Source: Clostridiales bacterium
GTDB lineage: Bacteria; Bacillota; Clostridia; Christensenellales; Borkfalkiaceae
Assembly: GCA_015055965.1 (NCBI GenBank)
Contig: SVHG01000006.1
Location: 57,234 to 121,233 of the forward strand
DNA length: 64,000 bases
Reading direction: 5' to 3'
Shown one piece after another: positions 14,881 through 30,647 of the stretch. The notes under the pieces are model-generated. The model saw nothing but the letters and a program-made list of their open reading frames with translations. It did not search any database and was not told the origin of the DNA. Numbering within the stretch: the first letter of the stretch is position 1; each line of letters starts with the position of its first letter. The translations under genes were made by a program, and so were the position numbers.

Positions 14881-15171
14881 GTTGCTCGCTTTGTTTCGTT
14901 AAATATTAAATGTTTTGTTACAAATTTGGAACGGGATTGCCTGCATCATCATAATGCCATTCGTTTGCATAATATACTTTAGCATTTTCAACAGCAAAAT
15001 CATCCTCCCAGCCATCAGGCTTGCTTGCCGCTTCACAAAATACCATTGTATCCGTAAACGCGTACGCACCAATTATTTCCACACTTTTAGGAATCACTAT
15101 TTGTTTTAAATTTTTACACCCTTGAAATGCTTGTGCTGCTATACTAACTAAACCGTCATTTAAAGAAATAT
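14878..15171 (-). repeat. direct repeat copy B
   Basis: See copy A. Copy B lacks the left arm of the terminator hairpin, so the duplication boundary is at ~14877. Confidence 0.8.
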
Positions 15172-15895
15172 TTTCTAAACTCGAATGATAAAATGTTATT
15201 TGCCCTATCCTAATCATATTGGGCGAGCACTTTACATGCTTTATTTTAGATGACTTGTAAAATGGCGCGCTGGATATATGTGTCACCTCTAATGGAATTT
15301 CAAATATACCATTTTGATAACATTCCTCCTTAAAACCTATCAAAACTTTCCCGCCCATAGTTGTTGCGATACCTTCCTCATTATAAGATATATCTCCTAA
15401 TAGGAAATATGCACACTCGTCATCCAACACGCAATAATCTTCATATTTAACATAATGAGATTTATTGCAAAAATCATGCATTTTTAATAAATTTATAACA
15501 TCACCCTTAAAAACAATAAATGTATATTTATGTTTTTGGACTAAGCCTCCATTATTTTTATCAATAACAATAGATTTATCATCAAGCTCAAATATACAAA
15601 CTTCTTCATAATCAGGCAATTGGTAATACTCTTTACTAGCATTATATTGTTTTTTTGAAAGAGATTTTTTACTTAAAAAAATCAATTCGCCCTTATTTTC
15701 TTGGCCAAATAAGGATTCGAATCCTTTATCGAAATATTCTTTATCTGACAAATATTCCTTTTCCATTTGAGTTCCACTTTTACCAAATCGGCTGCAAGAC
15801 TGATAAGTTATTATCCCAACCAAAGTTAATATAATTGTTGCTATAATAGATACAGCTATAAGTAAAATCTTTCTTTTTCTTCTCCACTTAAACAT
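14918..15895 (-). CDS. membrane-anchored LRR (BspA-type) protein, paralogue of 13757-14686; candidate immunity protein
   Basis: 325 aa. N-terminal TM: ILLIAVSIIATIILTLVGIITY. The C-terminal ~90 aa are near-identical to the paralogue (...FQGCKNLKQIVIP.SV..IG..AFTDT.V.CEA.SKPDGW.DDFAVENAKVYYANEWHYDDAGNPVPN). The gene lies 15 nt downstream of the RHS-tip ORF. Confidence 0.8.
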   Translation of the reverse strand: MFKWRRKRKILLIAVSIIATIILTLVGIITYQSCSRFGKSGTQMEKEYLSDKEYFDKGFESLFGQENKGELIFLSKKSLSKKQYNASKEYYQLPDYEEVCIFELDDKSIVIDKNNGGLVQKHKYTFIVFKGDVINLLKMHDFCNKSHYVKYEDYCVLDDECAYFLLGDISYNEEGIATTMGGKVLIGFKEECYQNGIFEIPLEVTHISSAPFYKSSKIKHVKCSPNMIRIGQITFYHSSLENISLNDGLVSIAAQAFQGCKNLKQIVIPKSVEIIGAYAFTDTMVFCEAASKPDGWEDDFAVENAKVYYANEWHYDDAGNPVPNL

Positions 15896-15910
15896 TTTAT
15901 AATCTCCTTT

Positions 15911-17737
15911 TTACCAATATGGTTTAAATAATAACGATTGTACATCCCAATCATTTTTATTAGCATATGCTAATTTAAATGCTCCACCGCCGAAACCATA
16001 ATTACATCCTGATCCAACCACAGCATTAGAAATACTAGTTGCACCCTCCGCCAAACTTTGAATAAACTCCTTTTTTACCTCAATTTGATACGACTCTTCT
16101 GCGTTATTAAGATTTGAGGAATCCGTATTTTCACCGTTTAGAGTAGATTGCTCCTCTTTCACAAAAAACTCAGATACTGAAGTCCACGCATCTACAAAAA
16201 ATCCACTTACTGAATCCCATGCATTTGTAGCATATTCTTTAATCGAGCCCCATGTGTTTACAAAAAAGTTTCGTGTTGAATTGTAACCTCTTTCTAATCC
16301 TGTTGTAATTATATTTTTTAAGGAATTGTAGTCAGATATTAGGGAGTTCTTAATATTCTTAATACCTTTATCGATAGTATGTAATACTTTCTTTGCTGCA
16401 GGAATTATGTCTTCCTCTACATGTTTAACTATTACAATAGCTGCAACGATTGCACACACGGCTATGACTCCAGCAACAATAATTGCCCAGGTTGGGAAAT
16501 TACCATTTTCATCAGCATACATAACAGGGTTGTTATTACAGTAAGAATAAAGGTTAACACCGTTAAAGGAGTTTACATCCATATAAGTGATAGCATCCAT
16601 AGAAATAAATCTACCGATAACAGGTGCATAATATCTACTTTTTAGGTAATAAAAGCCTGTTTCTTCATCATAGAAGTAGCCTTTAAACATAAAGGGGTTA
16701 TGGATAACGTCTAAAGATTCACAGCCTTGAGTGATGGTTTGTGTGGGAACACCCCATGCATCATAATTGTATTTTACCACATAATCACCCTCACTGTCAA
16801 ATATTCCGGTAATATTTCCTAATATATCCCTATGATAGAAATATACCCCATTAGAAGTGTTTACCCCCACTAATTTACCACCAACATCATAAATAACGCC
16901 TTTAAACTTCATAACTCCACGAATTAATGATTTATTTTGAATCCACCCAACTTTATCGGCAAAGTTTTTGCCAAAAATTTTTGATAAAACCCTATGGCTT
17001 TTTAGACCATCGTAATAAGCAGTTCCAGATAATTTTGCAACTTCTTTATAAGTGACTCCCTTCCCTATAGTTAATCCTTTTGAAGCATAATTTGCAACTC
17101 TAATAACTCTAAAAAGAGATTGCCCTAATGCAAAAATTCCTCCTGTTAATGCTCCATTGGCGGCACCTTCTACAAATCCTTCCCAAAAATTTTCACCATT
17201 AATTGTATTAACAACACCTTGCGTTAAACCACCTAAAACTATACTAGAACCCATTTGAATAAACATTGGAGCAAGTGCTCCGCCTGTAAAAGCCGTTAAT
17301 AATAGAGCAGCTGTAAATGCACCCCCACCAATTAACCATTTTGCCCATTCAGGCATATTACCACTTGGGTCGGTGTACATTATTGGGTTGTTTAAGCAGT
17401 AAGCGTATAGGTTTAAGCCACCGATAGTTTCGGGGTCTAGGTATTCATAAGAGTCTGGGCTGATAAAGCGACCAATTGTGGGATCATACCAACGAGTTTG
17501 TAAATGGTACATTTGAAGCGCTTCACACCAGTAATAGCCACGGTATCTAAACGGGTTTAGATTGCCAATTGAGAAATCCTCATCCGTTCCTTCTAACGGG
17601 AAATTTTCTACCTCGCAATTACCCCACGCATCATATTTATAGCTTGCAACGCGGGTGCTACCATAATATATATCTGTAATATCGCCAAATAGGTTTTTAC
17701 TTATTGATATATTAACATAATCAAAACCTTTTGTCAA
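15911..17737 (-). pseudogene. 5'-truncated chimeric RHS/YD-repeat toxin tip: two RHS core ends, each followed by a different C-terminal domain, fused in frame
   Basis: 608 codons. The frame opens immediately after the upstream gene's terminator and has only a TTG start, with no RBS. There are two copies of the RHS core-end signature: NPFRYRGYYW..LQTRWYDPTIGRFISPD...LNLYAYCLNNPIMYTDPSGN (aa 61-127) and NPFMFKGYFYDEETGFYYLKSRYYAPVIGRFISMD...VNLYSYCNNNPVMYADENGN (aa 347-413). Each is followed by a Gly/Ala-rich hydrophobic or TM-containing tail. It could still be expressed, so 'pseudogene/orphan cassette' is an inference. Confidence 0.7.
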
Positions 17738-17748
17738 TATACGGTAAA

Positions 17749-17783
17749 GAAAAAGGCGGTGGCCATATAAAAAGCCCCGCCTG
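17749..17783 (-). terminator. intrinsic terminator 3' of the cytidylate-kinase-like gene
   Basis: Minus-strand RNA: AGGCGGGGC, loop, GCCACCGCCU (one bulge), then UUUUUCUUU. Confidence 0.65.
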
Positions 17784-17804
17784 TTAACTTATTAAACTAT
17801 TTTA

Positions 17805-18398
17805 TTAACCAAGCTTATTGTAAGCGGAAACGATTAGCTCCACACAAGAATCTATGCCAAGAACACCGCTATCTAAGCAAAGGTGGTAGTTGTTAACGTC
17901 ACCCCAAGCGGTATCCGTGTAATATTGATAATATGCCTTACGGCGTTTATCTTTATCCTTTAAACGGCGTTCCGTGGGCTGTTCCGTTTCGCCGTATACG
18001 TTTACGATACGCTCCATTCTTTTTTGCATATCTGCGTGAATAAACACCTTTAAGCATTGCGCTTTATCCCTTAAAATAACGTCTGCACAGCGACCTACTA
18101 TAACGCAATCGCCCTTTGAAGCAAGCTCCGTTATAATTCTTTCTTGCTCTATCCACAATCTATCCTGTAAGGAAAGTCCGTTTGCATAGCCTGCGGAAAG
18201 GGCGTTAAAAAATCTGCTGCCGGTGTTAGCATATTCCCCTTTTTCGCGAATAAATTCTTCACAAAAGCCTGATTCTTTTGCTATTTTATCTATAATTTCT
18301 TGATCGTAGCAAGCAATTCCAAGCTTTTCCGCCACCCTTTTTGCTATAGTTCTGCCACCGCTACCAAATTCACGGCTTACGGTAATGATTTTGCTCAT
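17805..18398 (-). CDS. cytidylate kinase-like family protein
   Basis: 197 aa. MSKIITVSREFGSGGRTIAKRVAEKLGIACYDQEIIDKIA has a P-loop-like GSGG and is typical of the cytidylate-kinase-like family. RBS is AAGGAGG. Confidence 0.75.
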   Translation of the reverse strand: MSKIITVSREFGSGGRTIAKRVAEKLGIACYDQEIIDKIAKESGFCEEFIREKGEYANTGSRFFNALSAGYANGLSLQDRLWIEQERIITELASKGDCVIVGRCADVILRDKAQCLKVFIHADMQKRMERIVNVYGETEQPTERRLKDKDKRRKAYYQYYTDTAWGDVNNYHLCLDSGVLGIDSCVELIVSAYNKLG

Positions 18399-18416
18399 AT
18401 TAAAACCTCCTTAAGG

Positions 18417-19895
18417 TTATTTTACAACTGAAATATAATTACTTTCGCCTTCCCCGCCAATGATTTTGCAACCCTTTTTCTTGGCGTATTCTACGTGCCC
18501 TATGATTTCATCCGTAATGACTTCACCGGGGGCAAGCAAGGGAATTCCCGGCGGATAACAGGTTACGTATTCACCGCTAATTCTACCCTTGGCGCTCGTT
18601 ATACTTATTTTTTCCTTGGGATAATAAAAGGCATCCCTTGGCGGAATTTTTACGATTGGCTTAATATATTCGTAAACGTAGGCGGGCTTTTCTTCCCTAG
18701 AATACTTTTTAGATATATCGTTAAGAGCATCCACTAGCTTAGCGCAATAATCAAAGCCGTCGCCAATAGCCGGGATTGCCAAAATATTACTTATATCGCC
18801 AAATTCAAGCTGTATATTATATTCTTTTCTTAGTAAATTATACACTTCTATACCCGTTAAACCCGTTTTATAGGTGTTAACGGCAAGCTTAGTGCTATCA
18901 AAGGCGAAAACCGCCTTATTTACAACTGTATTTTGCGCGGTTAGCGGAGTAAACCCGGGAATTTCCTTTATTGCGTTTACCGCGTTATTTACCCTTTGTT
19001 TAACCCTTTCTATTAACTTGTTACCTTCAAGCGCAAGCGTTTTTCTTGCTATATCTAAGGAAGCAAGCAGTAAATAGGAAGCACTTGTTGTCATGGTTAA
19101 ATTGATTATGCTTCTAACGTATTCCTTATCTACCCCAGCCCCTATTAAAAGAACAGAGCTTTGAGTTAAAGAACCGCCCGTTTTGTGAATGCTAACGGCA
19201 GAATAATCTGCCCCTGCGCTCATTGCGGAAGCGGGCAAGCCGTTACCAAAATAAAAATACGTTCCGTGAGCTTCATCCACAAGCACCTGCATATTGCGCT
19301 TATGCGCAAGCTCTACTATTTTCTTTAAAGAAGAACAAACGCCGTAATAGGTGGGGTTATTTATTAAAATAGCCCTTGCTTCGTTATTGCTTTCTATTGC
19401 GGATATTATATCTTCTTCGCTAACGCCAAGCGGAATACCAAATTCTTCATGCACGCCGGGATCTACGTAAACGGGAATACCGCCTGCTAAAATAACTGCG
19501 TTTATTACGCTAAGATGCACGTTCCTTGGCAAAATTATTCTTTCGCCCGGCTTAATAGCGCTCATTACCATAGCCTGCACGGCAGAGGTAGTGCCGTTAA
19601 CCATAAAGAAGGCGTGCTTTGCCCCAAAGGCTTCCGCAGCAAGCTCTTCCGCTTCCTTTATAACGCCCGTGGGGGAGGTAAGGTTATCTATTTCCGGCCT
19701 AGAGTTTTTATCTAATGCGACTGCCCTTTCCCCAAAATACTCACTTAACGGGGTAAAAACCCCTTTATGCCCGGGTACGTCAAGCGCAATACGGTTTAAT
19801 TTGCATTCTTCAACCAGCGCGGTTGCTATTGGCGTTTGTGCTTGGCGGGTTTTATTTAGTTGTTTTATCGGAGTAGAAGTCAATCCAATATTCAT
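18417..19895 (-). CDS. PLP-dependent Orn/Lys/Arg decarboxylase family protein
   Basis: ORF track 18417-19916 begins at a TTG; the first in-frame ATG is at 19895. The PLP-lysine motif is SIHKTGGSLTQSS. Fold-type I features: FFMVNGTTSAVQAMV and VDEAHG. Confidence 0.8.
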   Translation of the reverse strand: MNIGLTSTPIKQLNKTRQAQTPIATALVEECKLNRIALDVPGHKGVFTPLSEYFGERAVALDKNSRPEIDNLTSPTGVIKEAEELAAEAFGAKHAFFMVNGTTSAVQAMVMSAIKPGERIILPRNVHLSVINAVILAGGIPVYVDPGVHEEFGIPLGVSEEDIISAIESNNEARAILINNPTYYGVCSSLKKIVELAHKRNMQVLVDEAHGTYFYFGNGLPASAMSAGADYSAVSIHKTGGSLTQSSVLLIGAGVDKEYVRSIINLTMTTSASYLLLASLDIARKTLALEGNKLIERVKQRVNNAVNAIKEIPGFTPLTAQNTVVNKAVFAFDSTKLAVNTYKTGLTGIEVYNLLRKEYNIQLEFGDISNILAIPAIGDGFDYCAKLVDALNDISKKYSREEKPAYVYEYIKPIVKIPPRDAFYYPKEKISITSAKGRISGEYVTCYPPGIPLLAPGEVITDEIIGHVEYAKKKGCKIIGGEGESNYISVVK

Positions 19896-20340
19896 ACATC
19901 TTTTTTGCCCCTTCAAAGCAACCTTCGTAATTTTTTAAATCACTCCACGCGTTATCCGTAAAGCCCTCGCACTCTATAGCGCAAAGCCCGGAAAACATAT
20001 CAAAATAGAAGGGAAATGCCACGCATAAAGTGGGTTTATCCTTGTTTATACTGCACATTCCGTTAATGAACGCCTTACAAGTTCCGTCCTCTTCTAAAGC
20101 CATTTTATAGTATTCCTTTTTCATGGCCTCTGAATACCCGCGTTCTACAAAATGAAGCAGACCTGCGTTATAAAAACGCTCGTAATCCTCGTTAGTTAAA
20201 ACTATTTCTTCAAACGGTCTGTTATCTATACTGCCAAGCTCGTTAGTTATTCCACCAAAGGGCCCGCAGCAGCTATGATCACATTCGCTCATTTTACAGC
20301 AAAAATTTATTTTACCGTCCTTAATTTTCACCTTAGACAT
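19852..20340 (-). CDS. YkgJ-family Cys-cluster (CxxCxxCC-type) protein
   Basis: 162 aa. FCCKMSECDHSCCGPF...GMCSINKDKPTLCVAFPF. Its ATG lies 3 nt after the stop codon of the TIR-domain gene. Confidence 0.7.
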   Translation of the reverse strand: MSKVKIKDGKINFCCKMSECDHSCCGPFGGITNELGSIDNRPFEEIVLTNEDYERFYNAGLLHFVERGYSEAMKKEYYKMALEEDGTCKAFINGMCSINKDKPTLCVAFPFYFDMFSGLCAIECEGFTDNAWSDLKNYEGCFEGAKKMYEYWIDFYSDKTTK

Positions 20341-20343
20341 CTA

Positions 20344-23013
20344 TTAGTCCTCTTTTTCGCCCATAAATTTATCGTAGCTAATAAGCAACGGCTCTACCAT
20401 CCACGAACAGTTTTCGCCCACCGTTTTGTAGTTAGGTAAGCAATAATACTCGTCTACTGCAAGCTTTTTAGAAGAAAGTATGTAGTTAGAGGTTTTGTTC
20501 GCCCTACCCTTGCCCCTAATGATTTCATAGCCTATTACAGTTATGTTATCACGCTTAATCCTGGTTTCCCTAACGGATGCAAGCATGGGGAATATGCAGT
20601 AAGATATATCAACGTTTTCTGCGTTAAAATATTCGTCTACACTTTCGCTTTCCTGCCATTCGTAATTCTTGCCGTACTTTAAGAAGCAGAAGAAGTTCTT
20701 AATTTGTAATCTTACAGGCTCGTTTTGAACAAGCTCGTTGCTTACTGCAAGCTCTCCGCTGGCTTCCTTAAATTCCTTCACGTTGTTTAAAAGATTTTCC
20801 ATAATCTTTTCCTTTTCGTGAATTCTTCTGTACGTTTTAGGCGCTATTATATTGTGATATTTGGTTATTCTTAGCTTTTGTGTTTCGTCGTAAGCAGAAT
20901 CCGTCCACATTTCGTCTACGAAGTCGGCAATATTCTCGTTTTCCAAGTCTACTGCAAGAATAAAGTGGTTTCTTCTGTCTTTATCTTCCTTGCTATCGCC
21001 GGGGAAACGGTTTAACGCTTCCTTATGCGCCGTTAATAGCTCGTATTCCACGCTTTCACGCAGTACGGAGGACTTACTAACGAACATTACTACCATTACG
21101 GTATTCTTATCTGTAATTGCGGAGTGTACCCGTTCCATCCAACCGTCGCTTGAATCAATAGAAGAGGTATCGAAGAATACGTTTATACCGCGCTCTTTAT
21201 AATATTCTGCAAAGCGGGTTATCTTGCAGTCGGGCTCTTTATTATCGTCACGGCAGTAGCTTATGAACATACCCGGCTTATCACCGCTTTCTATGATAGA
21301 ATTGGGGTTAGAAGATCTGTTAAACATCTCTTGATTTTCTTCCCTTAATTCTAATATTTTCTTTTTAAAGCCAGTAAGCTTGGTTAAATCACAAATACAT
21401 TCTCTGCCGATAAGCTTTGCTATAACCTCGTTACCGCTTGATCTTTCTACTATGGAATGAAAGGCGTTAAATAAATATTCTACACCTTTTTCGGGTAAAT
21501 ATTCCTTCTTTAACTGCGCAACGTCCTTATAATACTTTTCTGCGTTAAAATCTACGCGGTTTTTAAGTAACGCGCCGTAGAATGAGCAAAGTAATGATAA
21601 AAGTGAGCTTAAATCCTCTTCCATAGAGGTTGCAGGATTGGTGAACATATCGTAAAAATCGTCTATAGAAAGAATTTCTTCTGCATCTGCAACGATTTTA
21701 TTATTTCTAATACCTGCAGTATAAAGTAAGCAAATGGTTCTTTGCTCTGCCTTTATTTCGTTTGCTCTTAAAATGAACGCCATACTGTTCATTTGAACTA
21801 TCTTTTTAAGCTTTAAAATATGCCCTTCTATCTTTTCCTTGCAAATAGCAAGCCTTTCTTCACAATCCTGTTCGCTTATGATACCGCTCTTAACAAAGCT
21901 CTTCATCATAATTTTGAACATTTTTTCGCTACTTTGCGCGCTATCGCTACCTTCGCCTGCGTGCATTAAGCAGTATACCGTTTTAAAAATACCCTGAGTT
22001 ATAAATAACTCGTAAATAAACATCTTTACCTGTGAAGGATAAAAGGTCTTATTTTCCGGAACTACACCCTCTAGGCTTGTTCCCTTAAACATACCCTTAA
22101 GCTGCTTACTAACGTCTGAAGTGGCGCGTTGGGGGGTATCTAAATCCAGCGCCTTTAACAAGCTGGAATCTGTAATATCCGCAAGCTTTTTAATAAATGC
22201 AAAGTCACACCAATAGGTATCTTCAAGCCATTGAATTTTTATGCCTAAAGAACGGCAAATCATAATTAGATTTTCGTCGTCGTAAATCTTACCCGTTTCC
22301 CTGCTTCTTCTTCCGTTTTTATCCGCGCTGTTTATCTTGGTATAATAAAAGTGTAACTCGCCGTCACGCTCGCCCTTGGTAACGGTGGTTAAAAGGTAAC
22401 AGTTTTCGGTTACCTTGCGTGATAAACAGTCGTCGTCTAGCTCGGGATTAAATTCGTAAAAGGCAAAATACGGAGCGTATTTACATTCCACCCTGTGCTT
22501 GCCGGTATCTATGATTAAATTACCGCTCTTAGCGTCAAATTCCGTTTGACTAAGAAGGGGTAATGCAGCTAATAGCTCTTTAAATTTTGCAAAGCTTACG
22601 GGCGAAGCCTTCATAACCGATCTGGAATTTATCTTAAGATAAGCATCCCTTAAACCGCCGATTATATTTGATATTTCGCCCCTTACAAGCTCTTCGCTAC
22701 CAATAGACGCGCAAAGGGTTATAAAAGAGAATATACGCTCGTCGTCGCCAATGCTCTTTCCTTCCGTCCAAAGCTTAGAAATAGCATCCGCCACCCCGCC
22801 GTATTCCTTTAATTCCTTAACCTCTACTCCCTTTTTTTGCGCCACGCCAATAACGTACGCCTGAACTAAGGCAGAGTAAAATAAACACACCTCGTGCGCG
22901 GTTTTAGGTAACATATCGCTCATAAGAACGATTCTTCTGTTGTAAGCGTTGCCAAATAACCTTTCGCCAACCGATTGAGTTATTAGCTTTTCGTTTATCA
23001 ATTTATTAAACAT
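20344..23013 (-). CDS. 889-aa protein with an internal TIR-like domain (about aa 582-700; nt ~20930-21275); remainder unrecognised
   Basis: The segment PGMFISYCRDDNKEPDCKITRFAEYYKERGINVFFDTSSIDSSDGWMERVHSAITDKNTVMVVMFVSKSSVLRESVEYELLTAHKE follows the bacterial TIR pattern. That pattern is hFISYxxxD at the start, then G-h-x-VFxD, then I-x-x-G/W, then hhVhhS..S..S, and finally a conserved Glu-containing helix. No P-loop or other known motif is seen in the ~580-aa N-terminal or ~190-aa C-terminal regions. Confidence 0.6.
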   Translation of the reverse strand: MFNKLINEKLITQSVGERLFGNAYNRRIVLMSDMLPKTAHEVCLFYSALVQAYVIGVAQKKGVEVKELKEYGGVADAISKLWTEGKSIGDDERIFSFITLCASIGSEELVRGEISNIIGGLRDAYLKINSRSVMKASPVSFAKFKELLAALPLLSQTEFDAKSGNLIIDTGKHRVECKYAPYFAFYEFNPELDDDCLSRKVTENCYLLTTVTKGERDGELHFYYTKINSADKNGRRSRETGKIYDDENLIMICRSLGIKIQWLEDTYWCDFAFIKKLADITDSSLLKALDLDTPQRATSDVSKQLKGMFKGTSLEGVVPENKTFYPSQVKMFIYELFITQGIFKTVYCLMHAGEGSDSAQSSEKMFKIMMKSFVKSGIISEQDCEERLAICKEKIEGHILKLKKIVQMNSMAFILRANEIKAEQRTICLLYTAGIRNNKIVADAEEILSIDDFYDMFTNPATSMEEDLSSLLSLLCSFYGALLKNRVDFNAEKYYKDVAQLKKEYLPEKGVEYLFNAFHSIVERSSGNEVIAKLIGRECICDLTKLTGFKKKILELREENQEMFNRSSNPNSIIESGDKPGMFISYCRDDNKEPDCKITRFAEYYKERGINVFFDTSSIDSSDGWMERVHSAITDKNTVMVVMFVSKSSVLRESVEYELLTAHKEALNRFPGDSKEDKDRRNHFILAVDLENENIADFVDEMWTDSAYDETQKLRITKYHNIIAPKTYRRIHEKEKIMENLLNNVKEFKEASGELAVSNELVQNEPVRLQIKNFFCFLKYGKNYEWQESESVDEYFNAENVDISYCIFPMLASVRETRIKRDNITVIGYEIIRGKGRANKTSNYILSSKKLAVDEYYCLPNYKTVGENCSWMVEPLLISYDKFMGEKED

Positions 23014-23074
23014 AATACTTCCCGTTTTAGTCTTTGGTATTTACTCAAAAACCTGCTTTTAAATCTCTTTGTTA

Positions 23075-23210
23075 ATGAATTGAATTACCTTATTCTTTTT
23101 ATGCTCCACGGAGCAATTCATGACGGAACGTCAATTCACGCGCGTTAGCGCAATTCATGCCATCGGCAATTCATTGTTGAAAAATCGTGTAATTTACACG
23201 CGTTTTCAAC
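23075..23210 (-). repeat. array of four abutting 'GC-rich mini-hairpin + AATTCA[T/C]' units, plus a flanking long hairpin and an inverted copy of the 7-mer
   Basis: Plus-strand units: GCTCCACGGAGC-AATTCAT (23103-23121), GACGGAACGTC-AATTCAC (23122-23139), GCGCGTTAGCGC-AATTCAT (23140-23158), GCCATCGGC-AATTCAT (23159-23174). The four stems differ in sequence but each is self-complementary. A long hairpin pairs GTTGAAAA (23176-23183) with TTTTCAAC (23203-23210), with an inner stem CGTGT/ACACG. The inverted ATGAATTGAATT lies at 23075-23086. Confidence 0.75.
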
Positions 23211-23215
23211 TTATA

Positions 23216-24481
23216 TTAAGTATTTTCTATAAGTCTTTTTGCAAGCTCTAAGTAAATTCCGTATGCCTTAGAAGCGTCTTCGGGCATAGTTTTTACGTCT
23301 GCGTATAGGTCGGATATCCTTCTTACCTCATCTGAAAGCTCGTGCGCATCCTTAACCCCTAATATTTGTTCACGCCATTTGAATAAGCCAACCTCGTGAA
23401 CGCTCTTTTCTACCTTACAGAAATATCCATCCGTAACGTGAGCGAAGTCCTTTGCAATTTTAGAAATTTCTGCAAAGCTTGCCTTTTGAAGCTCTTTGGT
23501 TTGTTCGCTTTCTTCAGGAACTGCGGTGGGAAGAATAATAACCATTTTCTTATTATCGTCACTCTTATATTCCTTCTTTTCTGCAAGCTGAGCTTCGTAG
23601 GTTACAAGCTGTAATCTAGTGCCGTTAATAAACTGTTGAGAAGGTCTCATACAGCAAACGATAACGTCTGACGTTTTATGTAATGCGTTTGCAGAGCTTT
23701 GCACGCCCGCACCGCTATCAAATAATATTGCGCCGTATTCCCTTTTTTCACATTCGCCAACAAGCTGCATAATTGCAAAAACGGAAGTGTTTGCAACCAA
23801 CTGCTCTCCACTATAAGAAACGTCTACCCCTAAGAACTTAACCGTTCCTTCTTCTTTTCCGAAGAAGCGTGAAACGTCCATAAAGCTATAGGCGGGTAAA
23901 AAGTCGGTAATAGCCTTGCGCTTTGAAGAAAGCTTTTCTTCTAAAGAAAGCTCGCTTTTTTCTATTTTATCAAGCGCGGTTAAAAGTCTGCCTAACGCGC
24001 TTATATACTTTTCTACGATTTCAAGATCTTGACCTTCAACGCAGGCGGTGTTTTCCATATAACGGCTACACTCATCCGCTATTTTTTGCAATATCTTTTG
24101 TTCCGTTAAGGGAAGCTCTAAATCGCCGAAAATCGCTTGAATATCTACCTGCTTAAAATGGGGAGATAAAGCCTTAATTACCGCGTTTAGATTTCTTTCA
24201 TCCCCGTAAGTTGCGCCGAAAACGCTTTCGTTTCTGCTTAAATATTCACCGCTGTTTATAATTTTGCAGGTGTGAATGCTCTTGGGGAATAAATCGGTAA
24301 ACTTATCTTGCGCGTTAAAAAAGTAGGTAAGACCGGCGCTTTCTAAGTCCGCATCAACAAGCAATAACGGCTTTTGGGGATTAGAGCCCAATTCATCTAT
24401 AAGATGCTTTGCCGTGTTTAGTAAGGTGGTCGTTCTACCTGAACCGCCCTTATATGAATAAAAAGTATAACATGCAGTCAT
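23216..24481 (-). CDS. ParA/MinD-like (SIMIBI-class) P-loop ATPase with a variant Walker A (KGGSGRTT) and a large insertion
   Basis: 421 aa. The N-terminus FYSYKGGSGRTTTLLNTAKHL...LLVDADLESAG resembles the deviant Walker A KGGxGK[ST], but Arg replaces the second Lys (nt 24428-24451). A Walker-B-like AILFDSGAG follows ~240 aa later, after a helical insertion. Confidence 0.7.
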   Translation of the reverse strand: MTACYTFYSYKGGSGRTTTLLNTAKHLIDELGSNPQKPLLLVDADLESAGLTYFFNAQDKFTDLFPKSIHTCKIINSGEYLSRNESVFGATYGDERNLNAVIKALSPHFKQVDIQAIFGDLELPLTEQKILQKIADECSRYMENTACVEGQDLEIVEKYISALGRLLTALDKIEKSELSLEEKLSSKRKAITDFLPAYSFMDVSRFFGKEEGTVKFLGVDVSYSGEQLVANTSVFAIMQLVGECEKREYGAILFDSGAGVQSSANALHKTSDVIVCCMRPSQQFINGTRLQLVTYEAQLAEKKEYKSDDNKKMVIILPTAVPEESEQTKELQKASFAEISKIAKDFAHVTDGYFCKVEKSVHEVGLFKWREQILGVKDAHELSDEVRRISDLYADVKTMPEDASKAYGIYLELAKRLIENT

Positions 24482-24503
24482 TTTTCTTCTTCCGCCTTAG
24501 TTA

Positions 24504-26654
24504 TTATTTCTGTTGGTTAAGTAATTCCTTAAGTACGCTGTATAAATTGATTAAGTAGTTAGAATCGTTTCTGGAAATATCGGTTACGAACGCGTTGAAT
24601 AGGTTGGGGAATCTTGCTTCAAAGCTTTCCATCTTTTCAATAGCGCCTTCGGTATATCTGCGGAAGGTTCTATCGTCTTCAACGGTAAATAATTCGTTGC
24701 CGTCCTTCGCCTTTTCGCCAGCCAAGAAGCCCTGCTTTGCAATAGTTGCGCGGTTTGCGCAGTTTTGCATAGCCATAAAGAATCTAAGCAATTCGTAAGC
24801 AAGCTTTTCCTTTTCGCTTTCCCCGTTTGCGCTGGGAATATCAGTTTTAACGAATGCTGCAACCTCGCCAAGCTTTGCGCAAATAGTTCCCATATCGCAA
24901 GATGCGCTTGAACCGCTTACTCCTTCTAAACGCTTTTCTACCGCGCTGTTAATAAGCGCTTCTATATCGTTATTTTTCTTACCGCCAAGCTCTTTTTCTA
25001 CGCAAGCCTGAACGGTTTTTCCCATGCTTTCTGCGGTTAAAACCTTCTTTAACGCGCTTTCTATACGCTTATCAACTAGGTTTGCGATATATTCTTCTAT
25101 CATTCCGCCACCCGCTTGAGTGGTTGCGCCCTCTGCTTCCTCTTGCTTTTCGTACTTACAAACGTAATCGTAAGAGTCGATTATAGCTTCTATAGCGCGC
25201 TCTGTGATAAGTAGGTTGTAGTTTTCGGTATCCCATAGGTTGGTTACGCAAGCGGGGTTTCCGCTATCAACGTATCTATCCCCCATAATCTTATCAAACA
25301 TATCGTCTACAACCTTATCGGGCTGACCGGATACGTAATAGCAATACTGAACGTTTACGCGAAGCGCCATGGGTACTAACGCAGGCTCTTTAATATCCAC
25401 CTTAGCGCCTGCAACCTGTTGCATAATTTCGTGATCGTCGCCGTATTCCCATTCAATTTCAAATTCAGAGTTGCCAATCCAGAATGCGTAACGCGTTCTT
25501 GATGCGTTCATGTAGCTGGTTCTTGCAGAGTGAATTGCCTGAGCAACGTATTCACGGCAGAAGTTAACTGCGTTTTTACCGTTTTCATCTATGAAATAGT
25601 AATACAAGTCGTCTACGGGAAGCTTCATATCGCTCTTTGCACCGCCAACGCCGTAATGCTTTTTAAGCGCCTCAAATTCCTCTTCGTTGTTAACGATACT
25701 TTCGTAACGTAAGTCCGCAGCGCCGTCAATTAGCATATCTATCAAATAGTAGGTATGGTATAGGTTGAAGTAGTTGTATTCTTGCTCTGAATTGTTTTTC
25801 TTCTTTCCAATGTATAAAATTTCCTTTTCTGCATCAGTAAGGCTTTGGCAGGTTGCTAGCTTGGGAAGAAGGGGTAAACAGTTTTTAATAAGCCAATCTT
25901 GAACCTTTGCTCTTGCTTGGTTAACGGCTTCAACAACGTCTTCAAATCCACCCTTATCGTTAAGGTAATCAATAAACTTATCGTCACGGCCACCGCCTAA
26001 AAGTTCAGCGTCGTTATTCTTTTCTACCTCGTCTATTTCGCCTAACGCATAGTTAAAGAAATCCGCAAGAGCGGCGTTAACTGCGTAAGTGAAGTATAAA
26101 GACCCGCGTGAAGGATTGCCGGCGTCTGCTCTAAAGCCCCAAGTGCCGTCCTCTCTTTGCCCCTTTAGTAATTTTAGAAGGGTATCTGCGCCGATATGTA
26201 ATAATCTATCCCTAACCTCTTCCGTTAAAGAAAGCACACCCTTTCTTTGAGCGTAACGGGCTAATATACATGAAGAAGAAACCCACGTCATAACGTCGGT
26301 ATAGCCGTATTCGCCAAAAAGACCTTTGGTTACCTCCGCTCTCTTATAAGGGGTAATAGAATAGCCTTCTTTTTCTACCATGTTTAGCATGGTGGTAATC
26401 ATTTTGTTTACCTTTTGGTTGATATCTGCCTTTTCGCTATCTGGGAAAATGCTCTTGTTATCGCCAAAAACAACCAATAACAGTAATGCGGAAGCAACCC
26501 CGATAGACTGGGGAATTAAGCCTTCGCTCATCATGTGGTTTTTATCAACGAATTTTTCGCCGCACTTAGACCATTCTTCAAATAGCGCCGTTTTCGTTGA
26601 TGACGCTGCTTCTAATACGGTTGATAGGTTAAGAATGTGTGAACGCATATCCAT
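24504..26654 (-). CDS. 716-aa hypothetical protein; possible alpha/alpha-toroid (prenyltransferase / terpene-cyclase-like) repeat
   Basis: First gene of the cluster, with RBS CAGGAG. The only motif I recognise is KGQREDGTWGFRAD (nt ~26110-26175), which resembles the QxxDGGWG repeat of squalene-cyclase/prenyltransferase folds. The fold assignment is weak. Confidence 0.75.
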   Translation of the reverse strand: MDMRSHILNLSTVLEAASSTKTALFEEWSKCGEKFVDKNHMMSEGLIPQSIGVASALLLLVVFGDNKSIFPDSEKADINQKVNKMITTMLNMVEKEGYSITPYKRAEVTKGLFGEYGYTDVMTWVSSSCILARYAQRKGVLSLTEEVRDRLLHIGADTLLKLLKGQREDGTWGFRADAGNPSRGSLYFTYAVNAALADFFNYALGEIDEVEKNNDAELLGGGRDDKFIDYLNDKGGFEDVVEAVNQARAKVQDWLIKNCLPLLPKLATCQSLTDAEKEILYIGKKKNNSEQEYNYFNLYHTYYLIDMLIDGAADLRYESIVNNEEEFEALKKHYGVGGAKSDMKLPVDDLYYYFIDENGKNAVNFCREYVAQAIHSARTSYMNASRTRYAFWIGNSEFEIEWEYGDDHEIMQQVAGAKVDIKEPALVPMALRVNVQYCYYVSGQPDKVVDDMFDKIMGDRYVDSGNPACVTNLWDTENYNLLITERAIEAIIDSYDYVCKYEKQEEAEGATTQAGGGMIEEYIANLVDKRIESALKKVLTAESMGKTVQACVEKELGGKKNNDIEALINSAVEKRLEGVSGSSASCDMGTICAKLGEVAAFVKTDIPSANGESEKEKLAYELLRFFMAMQNCANRATIAKQGFLAGEKAKDGNELFTVEDDRTFRRYTEGAIEKMESFEARFPNLFNAFVTDISRNDSNYLINLYSVLKELLNQQK

Positions 26655-26964
26655 TTTACTGCTCCTGTTTTTGGCTTTTGCCTTTTTTATTTTTTTGGCT
26701 ACTACGCCATTATATAAATATAATATTATTTATTATATACTATAAGTAGAGTAAAGTCAAGTGCAAAAATTATTTTATTACAAGAAGTTTAAAAACAGTA
26801 GTTTTTAAATGACCGCCCCCCGTTTTTCTGCAATTACTTGCAAAGTTGGGCTATACGGCGGTTATTCGCTTTTTGGGGCTGTTTTTGCTTAAAAAATAGG
26901 GTTTTTGCTATAAAATGAGCAAAAAATAGGGCTATAACGCGATTATCGGCACTTTAAAATTTAA

Positions 26965-27004
26965 CAAAATAAAAATTCGAGCAGTAAAACGCCACCCGAA
27001 TTTT
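26965..27004 (-). terminator. intrinsic terminator 3' of the third vanZ-like gene
   Basis: AAAATTCG (26972-26979) pairs with CGAATTTT (26997-27004). The minus-strand RNA has a U-rich tail. Confidence 0.55.
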
Positions 27005-27052
27005 CTTTTAATATATTCTTTTTATTTGTTATAAGACCGTTATTATAAGCTT

Positions 27053-27634
27053 TTATTTTGTGATAATAGCAATATAAATATCTATATTAGAAGCAAAGTT
27101 AAAGAATAAATAAGCAAAAATAGTAAGAGCAAGGATTAAAAATATAATAAGTAGCACGTTATAAATTTTATACCTTTCGCCCCTTGTTACTATTAAGTAA
27201 ATAACCGCACCTAACGCACCGCCAAGAGTATTTAAGATTAAATCGTTTAGCATAAACGAGCCTATTACGCTACTTAGCTGAAAAAGCTCTATTATTAAAG
27301 AGAATAAAAAGCTAACTATAAATGCCTTTAACAGCCTTTTACTTTGGAATAAGCCAGCCGTAAAAATACCAAATGGAATAAACACGGCAAGGTTTAAAAA
27401 ATCTAAAAGAAGAGTTTTTTTAATTACCCCTATTTGCGCTTCTATCTTATAAAACTCAATTAGCTTTAATCCCCTAACGAGCCTTTGCTTTAAGCTCATA
27501 GTGGATAAGAAGTTATAATTAGCTATTAAATCCTTAGGCATAATCGCCTTTAGTGCTATACCCCAAATAAGTAGTAACGCAAACAATGCAAAAGATGCCT
27601 TTATTAAATAATTAAAGATTTTTTTACTATTCAT
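27053..27634 (-). CDS. VanZ-like family membrane protein (third copy in the window)
   Basis: 193 aa. Motifs: FIPFGIFTAGLF and IELFQLSSVIGSFMLNDLILNTLGGALG. Confidence 0.85.
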   Translation of the reverse strand: MNSKKIFNYLIKASFALFALLLIWGIALKAIMPKDLIANYNFLSTMSLKQRLVRGLKLIEFYKIEAQIGVIKKTLLLDFLNLAVFIPFGIFTAGLFQSKRLLKAFIVSFLFSLIIELFQLSSVIGSFMLNDLILNTLGGALGAVIYLIVTRGERYKIYNVLLIIFLILALTIFAYLFFNFASNIDIYIAIITK

Positions 27635-27711
27635 ATATTTATTACCTTTTTATAATTATATATTTATTATAATCCTTTACAGTTATTAAATCAACCACTA
27701 TAAGCATATTT

Positions 27712-29176
27712 GGTACTGTCAAGCATTTTTCGCAAAATTGAAACTGATAAAACAGAAATAATTTGAAATTGCCTAAGGCGAGGCGTTCAGCCTCGTTAGT
27801 TGCTCACAAGCATTTCGGGGCGGCGGTGTCAAGGACAGCGCAGCTGCTCGTTCTTATCCTTGACTCCGCCCGCACGAAATGCTATGCTACTTGCTCCGTT
27901 TCGTACAGATATTTCATGCACAAATATCTTTTCGTTCCCCAATCTTTTCCCGATACGTATCGCAGTCTCGCACATACCAGCATCAACGCCGATTTCCCGT
28001 CCGGAAAAGCTCCCACCACTCGCGTCCGTCTCCGTATCTCACGGTTCATTCGCTCTATCACGTTATTCGTACGTATTTTCAGCCAATGTTGCGTGGGAAA
28101 TTCCATATACGTCAGCGTCTCTTCTATCGATTCTTCTACCTTTTTCGCCGCTTCCTTTAACCTCATGCCTTTCAGCGCCTCTACCACGTCCTTTGCCTTC
28201 TTTCTCGCCGATTCTTTGCTCTCCTGCGCGTGGATCGCTTTCAGCATCCGCGTTACTTCACGCATCCTGTTTCTCGGCGTTACCGACATTACGTTCCGAT
28301 AGAAATGTACCGTACACCGTTGATATTTCGCTTGCGGATATACTTCCTGTACGGCGTTATTCATTCCAAGACATTTATCTCCTACAATCAACCGTACCCC
28401 TTCTAATCCCCGTCCTTTCAGCCATTTCAGAAAGTTTCTCCAACTTTCTGCGTCTTCTTTCATTCCTTCCGCCGCGCCGATTACTTCCCGATAGCCTTCT
28501 TCGTCTACTCCGATAGCCACCAGCACGCTTACGTTTTCATACTCTCCGCCCCAGTTTCGTTTCAGACAAATCCCGTCTACGTATACGTACGGATATCGAC
28601 CCGTAAGCTTTCTGTTTCGCCATTCTTCTATATGTACGTAGGCTTTTTGATTCAAGTCGCTGATCGTAGAAGCCGAAACCCGACTTCCCCAAAGCGCTTC
28701 GGATATGTCTTCTACCCGCCGTACCGATACCCCTGCCAGATACATTTCGATTAAAGCTTCTTCCACCGAACTTTCTCTACGCTTATACCGTTCGATGATT
28801 GCCGTTTCAAAGGGGATTCCTTTGAGCTTCGGCACTTCTAATTTCACCTCGCCCGACGTGGTCGTTAATTTTCGGGCGTAGTGTCCGCTGCGGTAACCCT
28901 GACGGGTTTCGTTGCGTTCGTATTTCGCCGCACCCGTCAATTCGTCGGCTTCTTTGTCTAATAGTTCGTTTAACGTCTCTTCTACGCTTTTTCTTACCAA
29001 TTCTTTCAATTCCGACTTGACAGCCGCCTCGTTTAGTTGTATAATTTTATCAGACATGTTGCAATACTCCTTTGAATGTTGTTTTTTTTTGCTTATTCCA
29101 TTCTATCAGAGTTTTGCTTACATGTCTATTTTTTTGTATGCCTTTCTTCATTTTGCGAAATTTATTATACCTTATC
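27712..29176 (-). mobile_element. intact IS256-family insertion sequence (1,465 bp) with an 8-bp target-site duplication
   Basis: Imperfect 27-bp terminal inverted repeats: GGTACTGTCAAGCATTTTTCGCAAAAT at 27712-27738 against the reverse complement of 29150-29176, GATAAGGTATAATAAATTTCGCAAAAT. They match at 18 of 27 positions, and the inner 11 bp are identical. The direct repeat GCATATTT flanks both ends (27704-27711 and 29177-29184). The element looks visibly more GC-rich than the surrounding DNA. Confidence 0.8.
27882..29057 (-). CDS. IS256 family (Mutator-type) transposase
   Basis: 391 aa. Typical IS256 transposase blocks: YPYVYVDGICLKRNWGGEYENVSVLVAIGVDEEGYREVIG...ESWRNFLKWLKGRGLEGVRLIVGDKCLGMNNAVQEVYPQAKYQRCTVHFYRNV...EMYLAGVS. 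Confidence 0.9.
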   Translation of the reverse strand: MSDKIIQLNEAAVKSELKELVRKSVEETLNELLDKEADELTGAAKYERNETRQGYRSGHYARKLTTTSGEVKLEVPKLKGIPFETAIIERYKRRESSVEEALIEMYLAGVSVRRVEDISEALWGSRVSASTISDLNQKAYVHIEEWRNRKLTGRYPYVYVDGICLKRNWGGEYENVSVLVAIGVDEEGYREVIGAAEGMKEDAESWRNFLKWLKGRGLEGVRLIVGDKCLGMNNAVQEVYPQAKYQRCTVHFYRNVMSVTPRNRMREVTRMLKAIHAQESKESARKKAKDVVEALKGMRLKEAAKKVEESIEETLTYMEFPTQHWLKIRTNNVIERMNREIRRRTRVVGAFPDGKSALMLVCARLRYVSGKDWGTKRYLCMKYLYETEQVA

Positions 29177-29249
29177 GCATATTTCTTAAATAAAGGAATT
29201 TTTGTTATTGTAAACTTCTAAATTTACTTATTACAATAATAAAAAAGTA

Positions 29250-29281
29250 TAAAAAAACTCGACTATTTTTTATAGCCGAGT
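29250..29281 (-). terminator. intrinsic terminator of the rpsF-ssb-rpsR operon
   Basis: Minus-strand RNA: ACUCGGCUAU, AAAAA loop, AUAGUCGAGU (10 bp including one G-U pair), then UUUUUUU. Confidence 0.75.
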
Positions 29282-29301
29282 TATTTTTATTTTTTTGTTG
29301 A

Positions 29302-29595
29302 TTATTCACCTTTGAAGGGAAGTAATGCAACGATTCTTGCTCTTTTAACAGCTTCTGCAAGCATTCTTTGGTGCTTAGCGCATACGCCGGTCATACGTCT
29401 GGGGAGCATTTTACCCTTTTCGGTAACGTATTTTCTTAATTTGCCAACTTCTTTATAATCAATAGAGGTTGCTTTTTCAACACAGAATTGGCAAACTTTT
29501 TTCTTGTTTACTCTTTTGAAAGGCTTTTTTGCAGATGCTACGGGAGCAGAAGCTTCGGTAGCAGGAGCAGCCGTGTTTACGGTGTTTTCTTCCAT
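29302..29595 (-). CDS. rpsR: 30S ribosomal protein S18
   Basis: 97 aa. [63 protein letters not shown] is a canonical S18 core. The N-terminal extension is Ala-rich. Confidence 0.95.
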
Positions 29596-29741
29596 TTTTA
29601 TTTCTCCTTATGATATTCTTTGTTTTCGCGTTTACGCGATTTTTTTACGCTTTTTAAGCGCCGTGTTTTGCTTTTTTAGAGCATAAAATGCCTACCCCGC
29701 CCTTTTTACGCGAGGTAATAGGCTTAATGAAGGTTTGTTAA

Positions 29742-30158
29742 TTAGAAGGGAAGCTGATCGTCGTCTGCCATAACCTCTAACTCGGGTTTCTTTGAACCGG
29801 AGCTTATGGGACGGGGTTCTTCTTCCTGACCTTCCCCTGAACCTTTTGAGGATAGGAATTCCACTTCGTTTGCCACGATATCCGTTACCGTGCGCTTATT
29901 ACCGTCTTTATCTTCATAAGTACGGTTTTGTAAGCTACCCACGATTGCAACCTTGCTACCCTTTTTAAGGTATCTTCCGCAATTTTCTGCCTGAGTTCTC
30001 CAAACGGTGATATTAAAGAAGTCTGTTTGGCGTTCGCCGTCACTGCTAGAGTAATTGCGATTTACAGCAATTGAAAAACGGCAAAGAGCAATACCGCTAG
30101 GGGTTTCGGAAAGCTCGGGATCACGTGTTAAATTACCAATAAGATATACTTTATTCAT
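29742..30158 (-). CDS. ssb: single-stranded DNA-binding protein
   Basis: 138 aa. OB-fold N-terminus MNKVYLIGNLTRDPELSETPSGIALCRFSIAVNR, a Gly/Glu-rich linker, and an acidic tip DDDQLPF. Confidence 0.95.
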   Translation of the reverse strand: MNKVYLIGNLTRDPELSETPSGIALCRFSIAVNRNYSSSDGERQTDFFNITVWRTQAENCGRYLKKGSKVAIVGSLQNRTYEDKDGNKRTVTDIVANEVEFLSSKGSGEGQEEEPRPISSGSKKPELEVMADDDQLPF

Positions 30159-30206
30159 CTTTATTCCTCTGTTGTTTTTTCTTGTTTAATAACCTTTAGC
30201 TAATTA

Positions 30207-30491
30207 TTAAGCTCTTTTGGTTACCATTTGTCTTAACATACCTTCGGTGATGCCTGCAACACGGGTGATTTCCGCGATAACGCTGGTTTCACATTCGAAC
30301 GTCATAAGAACGTAGTAGCCTTCGGTTTGGTAGTTGATAGCGTAAGCGAGCTTCTTAACACCCCACTTATCAATACCTTCAACCTTTCCGCCTGCTTCAG
30401 TTACGATTCCTTCAAACTTAGCAATAATTGCATCCCTAGCTTCGTCTTCAAGCTTGGTTGAAAGAATGTAAAGCATTTCGTACTTCGTCAT
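30207..30491 (-). CDS. rpsF: 30S ribosomal protein S6
   Basis: 94 aa. MTKYEMLYILSTKLEDEARDAIIAKFEGIVTEAGGKVEGIDKWGVKKLAYAINYQTEGYYVLMTFE. Confidence 0.95.
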   Translation of the reverse strand: MTKYEMLYILSTKLEDEARDAIIAKFEGIVTEAGGKVEGIDKWGVKKLAYAINYQTEGYYVLMTFECETSVIAEITRVAGITEGMLRQMVTKRA

Positions 30492-30647
30492 GATTTTTTT
30501 ACCTCCTGGTCTTAATCGGCTTGCGTTTTCATCGTTTTATATTCCTCGCAAGCAAGGTTTGCCTTTCGGCATATAATTAAAAGCTTAACGCCTTAATTAT
30601 TAGAGTAACGGGTTACCCCGCCCTCGGCTCGCTACGAGCCGAAGGCA
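30492..30647 (-). promoter_or_regulatory. structured rpsF 5' leader (possible S6:S18 autoregulatory leader)
   Basis: The ~150-nt UTR contains strong hairpins on the minus strand: GCCUUCGGCUC, loop, GAGCCGAGGGC; GCCGAAAGGC; and GCUUGCG, loop, CGCAAGC next to the RBS. The functional assignment comes from knowledge of Firmicutes rpsF leaders and is not verified here. Confidence 0.4.

Follow-up and report, generated by a model that had tools for sequence, protein, structure and literature searches.

Does the gene cluster around an embedded TIR domain in a Clostridiales bacterium (Borkfalkiaceae) form an immune system of its own, or is it part of something larger? The cluster lies on the minus strand of a 64,000-nucleotide (nt) window, the whole stretch of DNA analysed here (positions 57,234–121,233 of contig SVHG01000006.1, assembly GCA_015055965.1); all positions below are window positions. 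An initial annotation had described three genes, here g1, g2 and g3, as a candidate defence system made of a toroid-like protein, a ParA-like ATPase and a TIR-domain protein. We found that the locus is part of a so far undescribed module family, in which these genes are accompanied by a Cys-rich protein (g4) and an amino-acid decarboxylase (g5). Our tentative reading is that of a TIR-based conflict (immune-type) module coupled to arginine-derived amine production.

A five-gene module found mainly in gut Clostridia

The open reading frames (ORFs) of g1 (26654..24504, 716 amino acids (aa)), g2 (24481..23216, 421 aa) and g3 (23013..20344, 889 aa) run in the same direction on the minus strand, separated by 22 nt (g1–g2) and 202 nt (g2–g3), and the coordinates and gaps given in the initial annotation were reproduced exactly. 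Two further minus-strand genes follow: g4 (20340..19852, 162 aa, Cys-rich) starts 3 nt past the stop of g3, and g5 (19895..18417, 492 aa according to public gene callers, with an ATG at 19895 and an alternative TTG at 19916) starts inside g4, which gives a 44-nt overlap. Related loci were obtained by placing g1 homologues (24–45% identity) in their contigs and by adding 80 loci from species-representative genomes through an alignment of g2. Using hidden Markov model scans and clustering of all ORFs, we found at least 15 non-redundant loci that share the order g1-g2-g3-g4-g5, at 30–45% protein identity; they come from Christensenellaceae, Acutalibacteraceae, Oscillospiraceae, Faecousia and other Clostridia. 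A 4-nt overlap of g4 and g5 is frequent in these loci. The flanks are unrelated between loci (valS/gidA/typA at one, glycosidases at another and transposase/MazE/TIR-LRR genes at a third), so the same five genes behave as a single cassette. Co-occurrence of the original trio outside this genome is thus borne out, at a frequency far above chance, and the boundaries first drawn around it were too narrow, as g4 and g5 are co-conserved with g1–g3 in distant relatives. The order of G1-like protein, ATPase and G3 by itself was seen at one locus only (L016), a 5.9-kb contig that ends inside G3.

The family occurs in about 130 of 185,579 species genomes and is mainly limited to gut Clostridia. A g1-g2-g3-g4 block without g5 was also found on an 82-kb contig (CALUOK010000009.1, L022) binned as a Candidatus Methanomethylophilaceae archaeon, which reflects either horizontal transfer into the archaeon or a mis-binned clostridial contig. 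Phage or plasmid carriage of the module was rejected, as it is absent from the phage, plasmid and IMG/VR collections, and PHROGs gave nothing specific. As the initial annotation had supposed, no named system fits: neither PADLOC, Pfam and NCBIfam nor the literature held a system or description matching the gene set. Named defence systems were set aside for want of a system-level match in PADLOC, NCBIfam or Pfam, the matches to PDC-M28B and ThsB (both below) being partial or insignificant.

g3 embeds a TIR domain in a largely unannotated protein

The 889-aa g3 comprises a helical/beta core (aa 4–551) resembling C2, a protein of the sister modules described below, then a TIR domain (aa 571–732; 20818..21303, minus strand) and a strongly conserved beta-rich C-terminal domain (aa ~800–889). 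The internal TIR domain proposed at the outset proved sound. Pfam TIR_2 (PF13676) matched aa 583–664 with 31.0 bits, above its gathering cut-off of 28. In the AlphaFold model, which has an overall predicted local distance difference test score (pLDDT) of 59.7, the TIR segment reaches local values of 65–88. The top 30 Foldseek matches of the model in the PDB were nearly all TIR domains (SPARTA, RPP1, SNC1, RUN1 and AbTir, the last with a target-normalised template modelling (TM) score of 0.73), and those of the segment were TIR domains throughout. E658 (codon at 21040–21042) is invariant in nine close homologues, and its column is at least 90% Glu among 53 fused or stand-alone TIR domains; from its position in the motif we infer that it is the equivalent of the catalytic Glu of AbTir and SARM1. 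Given the TIR fold and the conserved Glu at the catalytic position, cleavage of nicotinamide adenine dinucleotide (NAD+) or ADP-ribosyl transfer would be the expected chemistry.

The g3 protein resembles Thoeris proteins at insignificant levels only (PADLOC ThsB, E = 0.019; NCBIfam ThcB4, 18 bits against a cut-off of 220), and its score against the retron-TIR profile was likewise insignificant. No ThsA-type effector (SIR2, Macro or transmembrane domain with a SLOG-type sensor) is encoded by g1, g2, g4, g5 or the immediate neighbours. Profiles of g1, g2 and g3 searched against the PDB returned nothing beyond weak TIR matches.

g2 is an Arg-variant ParA-like ATPase with recurrent TIR partners

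By its motifs, g2 is a ParA/MinD-like SIMIBI P-loop protein, as first proposed. Its Walker A motif, KGGSGRTT (24428–24451, within the stretch YKGGSGRTT), departs from the canonical KGGxGK[ST] of the ParA/MinD deviant-Walker-A ATPases by having Arg in place of the P-loop Lys. FYSYKGGSGR is present in all 39 aligned homologues, so that the signature Lys (K11) is kept and the P-loop Lys is replaced (R16), and the acidic switch/Walker B residues D43, D45, E47 and D255 are invariant in the same set. Scores against general family profiles fall below cut-off (Pfam AAA_31, 17.6 bits against 27; NCBIfam ParA_partition, 27.5 against 180), and the profile of g2-type ATPases had no PDB match at E ≤ 0.01. 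The closest profile is NCBIfam NF047398, the KGGVGR-motif variant AAA ATPase, which scored 73 bits against a cut-off of 90; its best-scoring stretch in g2 is the N-terminal ~55 residues (aa 4–60), a second stretch was also matched, and g2 has the trait that marks this family, a KGG[VS]GR P-loop with Arg for Lys. Component B of PADLOC's PDC-M28 matched aa 5–59 only (E = 4.5e-9). No operon protein matched component A, and we found no description of PDC-M28 in the literature.

The most remote genome matches of the g2 profile, which have only the P-loop region in common with it, were examined for partner domains. In four of five such proteins from other phyla the KGGSGR domain is fused to a TIR domain; these include two ParA-like-TIR-NB-ARC-TPR proteins of Dactylosporangium and a 473-aa ParA-like-TIR protein from a Bacteroidia metagenome-assembled genome. 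The pairing of g2 with a TIR protein is therefore one case of a recurrent partnership. "Inactive MinD/ParA-like" domains have been described in TIR/AP-ATPase and VMAP conflict systems (Kaur et al, 2020; PMC7159879), and the g2-type KGGSGR domain corresponds to them. No significant MoxR, vWA or VMAP domain, the set that marks the vWA-MoxR (VMAP) ternary systems of the same study, was found in the operon. Separately, 11 IMG/VR viral contigs (L091–L101) matched at the level of the P-loop (query aa ~6–60); the six stretches translated all read FYSYKGGVGRT, the KGGVGR form proper.

g1 is the constant partner of the ATPase

No family in Pfam, NCBIfam, PADLOC or PHROG covers g1. Its AlphaFold model (mean pLDDT 84, mostly above 90 over aa 1–500) and Foldseek comparison show an (alpha/alpha)6 toroid over aa 1–500, followed by ~210 helical aa at the C-terminus, and a QW-like motif, QREDGTWGF, lies at aa 166–174 (26133–26159). 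The toroid-like protein with a QxxDGxWG motif named in the initial annotation is thus what the model shows. The best PDB matches were sugar 2-epimerases, GH76 mannanases, the thioester domain of complement C3/alpha2-macroglobulin, GH105 enzymes and oxidosqualene cyclase. These had Foldseek probabilities of 1.00 together with E-values of at least 3.5e-3, ~10% identity and target-normalised TM scores of ~0.5, and as all are weak, only the fold class is established. The g1 profile had no significant match in the PDB, and the model had none among viral structures. Residues invariant across the family are limited to W, D, Y, R, N and E; neither Cys nor His is among them.

A G1-like protein stands beside the ATPase in 77 of 82 loci, which makes g1 its constant partner. 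The family comprises 232 representative clusters in 1.84 billion proteins, all of them full-length and G1-like. One G1-like protein of a sister module gave a faint match to VMAP-M1 (E = 0.024).

g4 and g5 add a Cys-rich protein and a dedicated decarboxylase

Nine of the 11 Cys residues of g4 are kept in at least 80% of family members and there is a weak match to Pfam CxxCxxCC (PF03692), so g4 is a probable Zn- or Fe-S-binding protein. The g5 protein is a fold-I pyridoxal phosphate (PLP) decarboxylase of the Orn/Lys/Arg family: Pfam OKR_DC_1 and OKR_DC_1_C were matched in the window operon (L136) and in the orthologues at related loci, the PLP-Lys motif SIHK (residues 235–238) is present in 18 of 18 copies, and the best PDB match is 2x3l (5e-36). 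Its closest relatives outside the module, at 50–55% identity, are stand-alone genes in AdoMetDC-SpeA-SpeE-SpeB-CASDH-CASDC operons (AdoMetDC, S-adenosylmethionine decarboxylase). In a tree, the 14 module-linked copies form a clade apart from the 23 stand-alone copies (bootstrap 50/50). The sister group of this clade is the SpeA arginine decarboxylases encoded in canonical polyamine operons. As those operons contain agmatinase, g5 is most likely an arginine decarboxylase, judging from this relationship. We considered whether g5 might be an unrelated housekeeping neighbour; its separate, well-supported clade and translational coupling to g4 rule this out. No polyamine gene follows g5 in any type A locus, as we call those with the five-gene module.

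Sister modules keep the core and exchange the enzymes

A commoner relative, type B, has a G1-like protein followed by a 290–335-aa ATPase, the ~760-aa C2 and, usually, a ~265-aa tandem AdoMetDC-fold protein. The g3 protein is homologous to C2 over aa 4–551 (hhalign probability 99.2) and to stand-alone ~380-aa TIR proteins of type B over aa 571–732 (hhalign probability 99.5), so the two types were assembled from the same parts. The stand-alone TIR proteins of sister modules scored 43.8 and 32.5 bits against TIR_2. In type B, the gene upstream of G1 encodes a TIR protein, an agmatinase-family enzyme, an agmatine deiminase or a radical SAM/SPASM enzyme. Considering 79 non-redundant modules, the G1-ATPase-C2 core is constant and the accessory enzymes are exchanged: a TIR domain without an agmatine-hydrolysing enzyme is found in 51 modules, the reverse in 19, and the two together in none. 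A decarboxylase, either PLP-dependent or pyruvoyl-dependent and SpeD-like, is found in 55 of the 79, always as the last or second-to-last gene, and six complete modules (rSAM-G1-ATPase-C2-tir, where rSAM is the radical SAM enzyme) lack one.

The tandem AdoMetDC-fold proteins (cluster C3; 13222–14019 of L024 and 41 other loci, ~265 aa) have H.TIHTFP..C but no cleavage Ser in the N-terminal half, and the Ser (AQSH) but no HTxPE motif in the C-terminal half. By these motifs, C3 is a pseudo-dimer with complementary active-site halves. BLAST showed no similarity between C3 and canonical clostridial SpeD, and the sister-module agmatinase is only ~30% identical to canonical SpeB; on these grounds, both were rejected as ordinary polyamine genes. 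SpeD homologues have repeatedly become Arg/Orn decarboxylases and formed fusions, and clustering with speB or aguA is a mark of arginine decarboxylase activity (Li et al, 2023; PMC10407285). These published shifts support the view that C3 is functionally equivalent to g5.

Two loci deserve separate mention. First, at L002–L004 (~10000–22000) a type A module without g5 and a type B module (tir-G1-ATPase-C2) stand in direct succession, in that order. The opposite strand upstream encodes a SIR2 protein and two unannotated proteins of ~1000 and 1140 aa, which gives the region the look of a defence island. Second, at L005 (15086–20035) a 717-aa vWA protein and then a Tubulin_2 protein of more than 1100 aa lie beside the most divergent module (a 618-aa G1, ATPase, C2, G4 and AdoMet_dc). 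The pairing calls to mind the tubulin/vWA conflict systems (Kaur et al, 2020; PMC7159879).

A proposed conflict module coupled to amine production

We tentatively favour the view that the locus is a conflict module tied to an arginine-derived amine. The operon order kept in at least 15 loci, the dedicated g5, the TIR domain with its Glu and the coupling of ATPase and TIR support a conflict role, and a constant core with exchangeable enzymes in a rare, patchily distributed family is a conflict-like feature. We also counted in its favour the neighbours of several loci (transposases, MazE, Cas6, Cmr1, Cas9, MADS-like and TIR-LRR genes) and the two paralogous modules in tandem beside SIR2 at L002–L004.

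A possible sequence of events is as follows. ParA/MinD proteins are established to dimerise in the ATP-bound state, and g2 would similarly bind ATP and form a nucleotide-sandwich dimer, with the Lys-to-Arg change in the P-loop favouring binding over hydrolysis. TIR NADases need self-association for activity; dimerisation of g2 would gather g3, leading to self-association of the TIR domains and to NAD+ cleavage. In parallel, g5 would convert arginine to agmatine. Either NAD+ and arginine would both be drained, arresting the infected cell, or agmatine would serve as the acceptor in a TIR base exchange that yields ADP-ribosyl-agmatine. Histidine-ADP-ribose, reportedly a product of type II Thoeris, offers an analogy for the second outcome. 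The specific proposal that agmatine from g5 and a TIR domain gated by the g2 dimer give an ADP-ribosyl-agmatine-type conjugate that signals in immunity or, as a metabolite, is toxic or blocking, strikes us as improbable. If it held, one amine-based logic would underlie the sister modules as well, those with agmatinase or agmatine deiminase being variants of it. g1 and g4 might be trigger- or ligand-binding and metal-dependent accessory parts.

Several observations weigh against the conflict reading, which leaves the roles of g1 and g4 unexplained. In 19 of the 79 modules the TIR domain is absent and agmatinase or agmatine deiminase is found instead, giving these modules a metabolic rather than immune look. 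Apart from the TIR domain, no killing effector is recognisable in the operon, and the g3 model outside that domain is poor at this overall pLDDT and not interpretable. The window's own species carries the operon in all 20–23 contigs, and the phage, plasmid and IMG/VR collections gave P-loop-level matches only, with no family members. Nothing in PADLOC or the literature links a polyamine-type decarboxylase to defence. The flanks of type A are mostly housekeeping genes (valS, gidA, typA, ligA, hsp33), and only ~8–10 of 105 flanking proteins match PADLOC models. The enrichment in defence islands that the initial annotation had suggested looking for is therefore modest, most other flanking genes being housekeeping ones. 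The cas9 gene that it had placed in the same window was not confirmed, as no cas9-sized or Cas9-like ORF could be detected anywhere in it. With this modest enrichment, the unconfirmed cas9 context and the swapped enzymes, a role in defence is one that we infer.

Alternative readings

The alternative that survives best, which we consider somewhat unlikely, is that the module serves a specialised arginine/agmatine (polyamine-type) metabolism and not immunity. Here g5 or the SpeD-like protein would make agmatine, which the enzyme of the exchangeable slot would then convert: agmatinase to putrescine, agmatine deiminase to N-carbamoylputrescine and TIR to an NAD-derived conjugate. The pathway would end in a special polyamine, in a conjugate of a polyamine or in a cofactor, and the g1-ATPase-C2 core would be a regulator, a scaffold or a set of novel enzymes using the arginine-derived amine. 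The composition of the modules argues for this: the accessory set consists of agmatinase, agmatine deiminase, an AdoMetDC-fold protein and a SpeA-type decarboxylase, the decarboxylase occupies its terminal place in 55 of 79 modules, and TIR and the agmatine hydrolases exclude each other in the same slot upstream of G1 in type B (51/19/0). So do the housekeeping flanks at many loci and the stability of the operon within the window's species. The shift of SpeD to Arg/Orn decarboxylase has a precedent, and clustering with speB/aguA is a published marker (PMC10407285). Yet the core proteins are large and fast-evolving, without recognisable enzyme signatures, no aminopropyltransferase or other polyamine-elongating enzyme is found in the module, and six complete modules do without the decarboxylase. 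The family is also very rare for a metabolic pathway, and the KGGSGR domain is otherwise seen in TIR-NB-ARC-TPR immune-type proteins. No role in metabolism is known to us for a prokaryotic TIR domain that has the catalytic Glu; those described so far have been tied to immunity or virulence.

The view closest to the initial annotation, a self-contained three-gene system of NAD-depletion abortive infection in which g1 is the sensor, g2 the switch and g3 the effector and g4 and g5 are unrelated neighbours, now seems very unlikely. Its components stood up well: the TIR fold with Glu at the catalytic position, a ParA-like switch and a trio that recurs together were all found. The plain layout of NTPase, sensor and effector did not, since it leaves g5, the system's most consistent partner, and the TIR swaps unexplained. 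Moreover, nearly every type A locus keeps g4 and g5, translationally coupled, alongside g1–g3, the g5 copies of the modules group in a clade of their own (50/50), and in sister modules these positions always hold a decarboxylase or another enzyme. The trio was never seen as a complete conserved block, its single locus with G1-ATP-G3 order being the contig that ends inside G3.

Least probable of all is a biosynthetic cluster for a modified peptide or natural product of the kind of ribosomally synthesised and post-translationally modified peptides (RiPPs), which is suggested by the resemblance of the enzyme types to tailoring enzymes (radical SAM/SPASM, "peptide arginase", PAD-type deiminase, a LanC-like toroid and decarboxylases) and by the sister radical SAM/SPASM enzymes, whose best NCBIfam matches are PapB-like, along with the arginase-family and PAD_porph-family enzymes, but is opposed by radical SAM scores far under the family cut-offs, by the lack of a transporter, leader peptidase or immunity gene, by g1, in which neither Cys nor His is invariant as a LanC-type zinc site would need, and by the lack of a precursor, as no credible small ORF lies in the operon gaps of the window; nor do we know of TIR or ParA-like proteins as RiPP components.

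Regulatory features and genomic context

Upstream of g1, a promoter-like site (TTGACT-17-TATAAT, 11/12 consensus; 26732..26760, minus strand, 78–106 nt upstream of the ATG) is the best of the region, judged by consensus match only in a region where such sites are no more numerous than the shuffled expectation. A terminator-like hairpin (27005..26971) belonging to VanZ, the gene upstream, immediately precedes it. The g2–g3 spacer (23014..23215, minus strand, 202 nt), which is only 10–50 nt in most other loci, contains three exact copies and one degenerate copy of ATGAATTGC at 23113–23174, 16–19 nt apart. Exact copies occur nowhere else in the 64-kb window, and the repeats may be an operator or an internal regulatory site. 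No credible peptide ORF was found in the spacer, and an Rfam scan of 17000–30500 gave no riboswitch or known RNA leader at E ≤ 1.

The surroundings agree with the initial annotation in two further respects: an IS256-family transposase (PF00872) lies upstream, at 27882–29057, and an RHS/YD-shell fragment lies in the window at 15911–17737. This fragment and the BspA-type LRR genes, downstream of the operon (8302–17737), vary between strains with identical operon and flanking proteins (window against L136–L145). Beyond them lie radical SAM and NYN/OST-HTH genes, which the distant locus L006 likewise has downstream of its module. Together, these observations suggest that the RHS/LRR genes are a later insertion. 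A Cytidylate_kin2-family gene (17805–18398, minus strand) begins 18 nt past the stop of g5 and is perhaps co-transcribed in this species; it is not kept beside the module in other taxa. Elsewhere in the window, ORFs of 751, 456, 505 and 349 aa at 3919–13070 matched no Pfam family. A single ORF of 10,220 aa, unusual in encoding a giant protein with virtually no recognisable domains, spans 30705–61367 (minus strand); scanned against Pfam as two 5000-aa pieces, it gave one weak match (PF14203, TTRAP, 37.8 bits).

Implications and comparison with known systems

If the locus is an immune module, it would represent a new architecture for TIR-based defence and tie defence to arginine/polyamine metabolism, a tie that is not recorded in the databases or literature searched. 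It would also give a testable role to the Lys-to-Arg "inactive" ParA-like domains, as partners that gate TIR assembly. The ADP-ribosyl-agmatine proposal, if true, would be the first tie of polyamine-pathway enzymes to TIR immunity. If the module is metabolic, it would be the first case known to us of a catalytically intact TIR domain in metabolism and would suggest that abundant gut Clostridia (such as Christensenellaceae and Oscillospiraceae) make an unknown product derived from agmatine. In both cases, G1 and C2/G3 are sizeable protein families that have so far been without any annotation, and the tandem protein C3 bears on the evolution of fused, pseudo-dimeric AdoMetDC enzymes (PMC10407285).

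Each part of the operon can be set beside a known system. With the toroid families (AGE epimerases, GH76, thioester domains and class II terpene cyclases), g1 shares the fold class and the QxxDGxWG motif, but it has none of their catalytic signatures and no invariant Cys or His, and it carries an extra 210-aa helical tail. Against PDC-M28, the likeness is limited to the N-terminal P-loop segment that g2 and component B have in common; the 55-residue match sits at a different position of the 438-residue model, and no other operon protein matches any PDC-M28 model.

The canonical clostridial polyamine operon contributes a closer relative, as g5 belongs to the same OKR_DC_1 family as its SpeA, is ~54% identical to it and keeps the PLP-Lys, and the sister modules also carry agmatinase, agmatine deiminase and AdoMetDC-fold proteins. 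In contrast to that operon, the window operon has no SpeE, SpeB or CASDH/CASDC, and module-linked g5 forms a separate clade. The TIR anti-phage systems (Thoeris ThsB/ThsA, SPARTA TIR-APAZ, TIR-STING and retron-TIR) share with g3 the TIR fold and Glu at the catalytic position. Unlike in these, a ThsA, Argonaute, STING, SAVED or reverse-transcriptase partner is lacking here, and the TIR domain sits inside an 889-aa protein of an unannotated family, with an amino-acid decarboxylase in the operon.

The conflict systems with KGGxGR MinD/ParA-like domains share with g2 the P-loop F/YSYKGGSGR[TS] with Arg for the Walker A Lys, a similarly placed D-x-D-x-E-[AS]-P/A-G switch and a recurrent TIR partner. 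They differ in that g2 is a stand-alone protein of 421 aa with a long helical insert, that no STAND/NB-ARC, TPR, vWA or MoxR component is present here, and that a toroid g1, a C2-type g3, a Cys-rich g4 and a decarboxylase g5 are not among their partners. The safest class for the locus is a variant of the TIR/NTPase conflict systems with an unprecedented tie to enzymes of arginine-derived amines.

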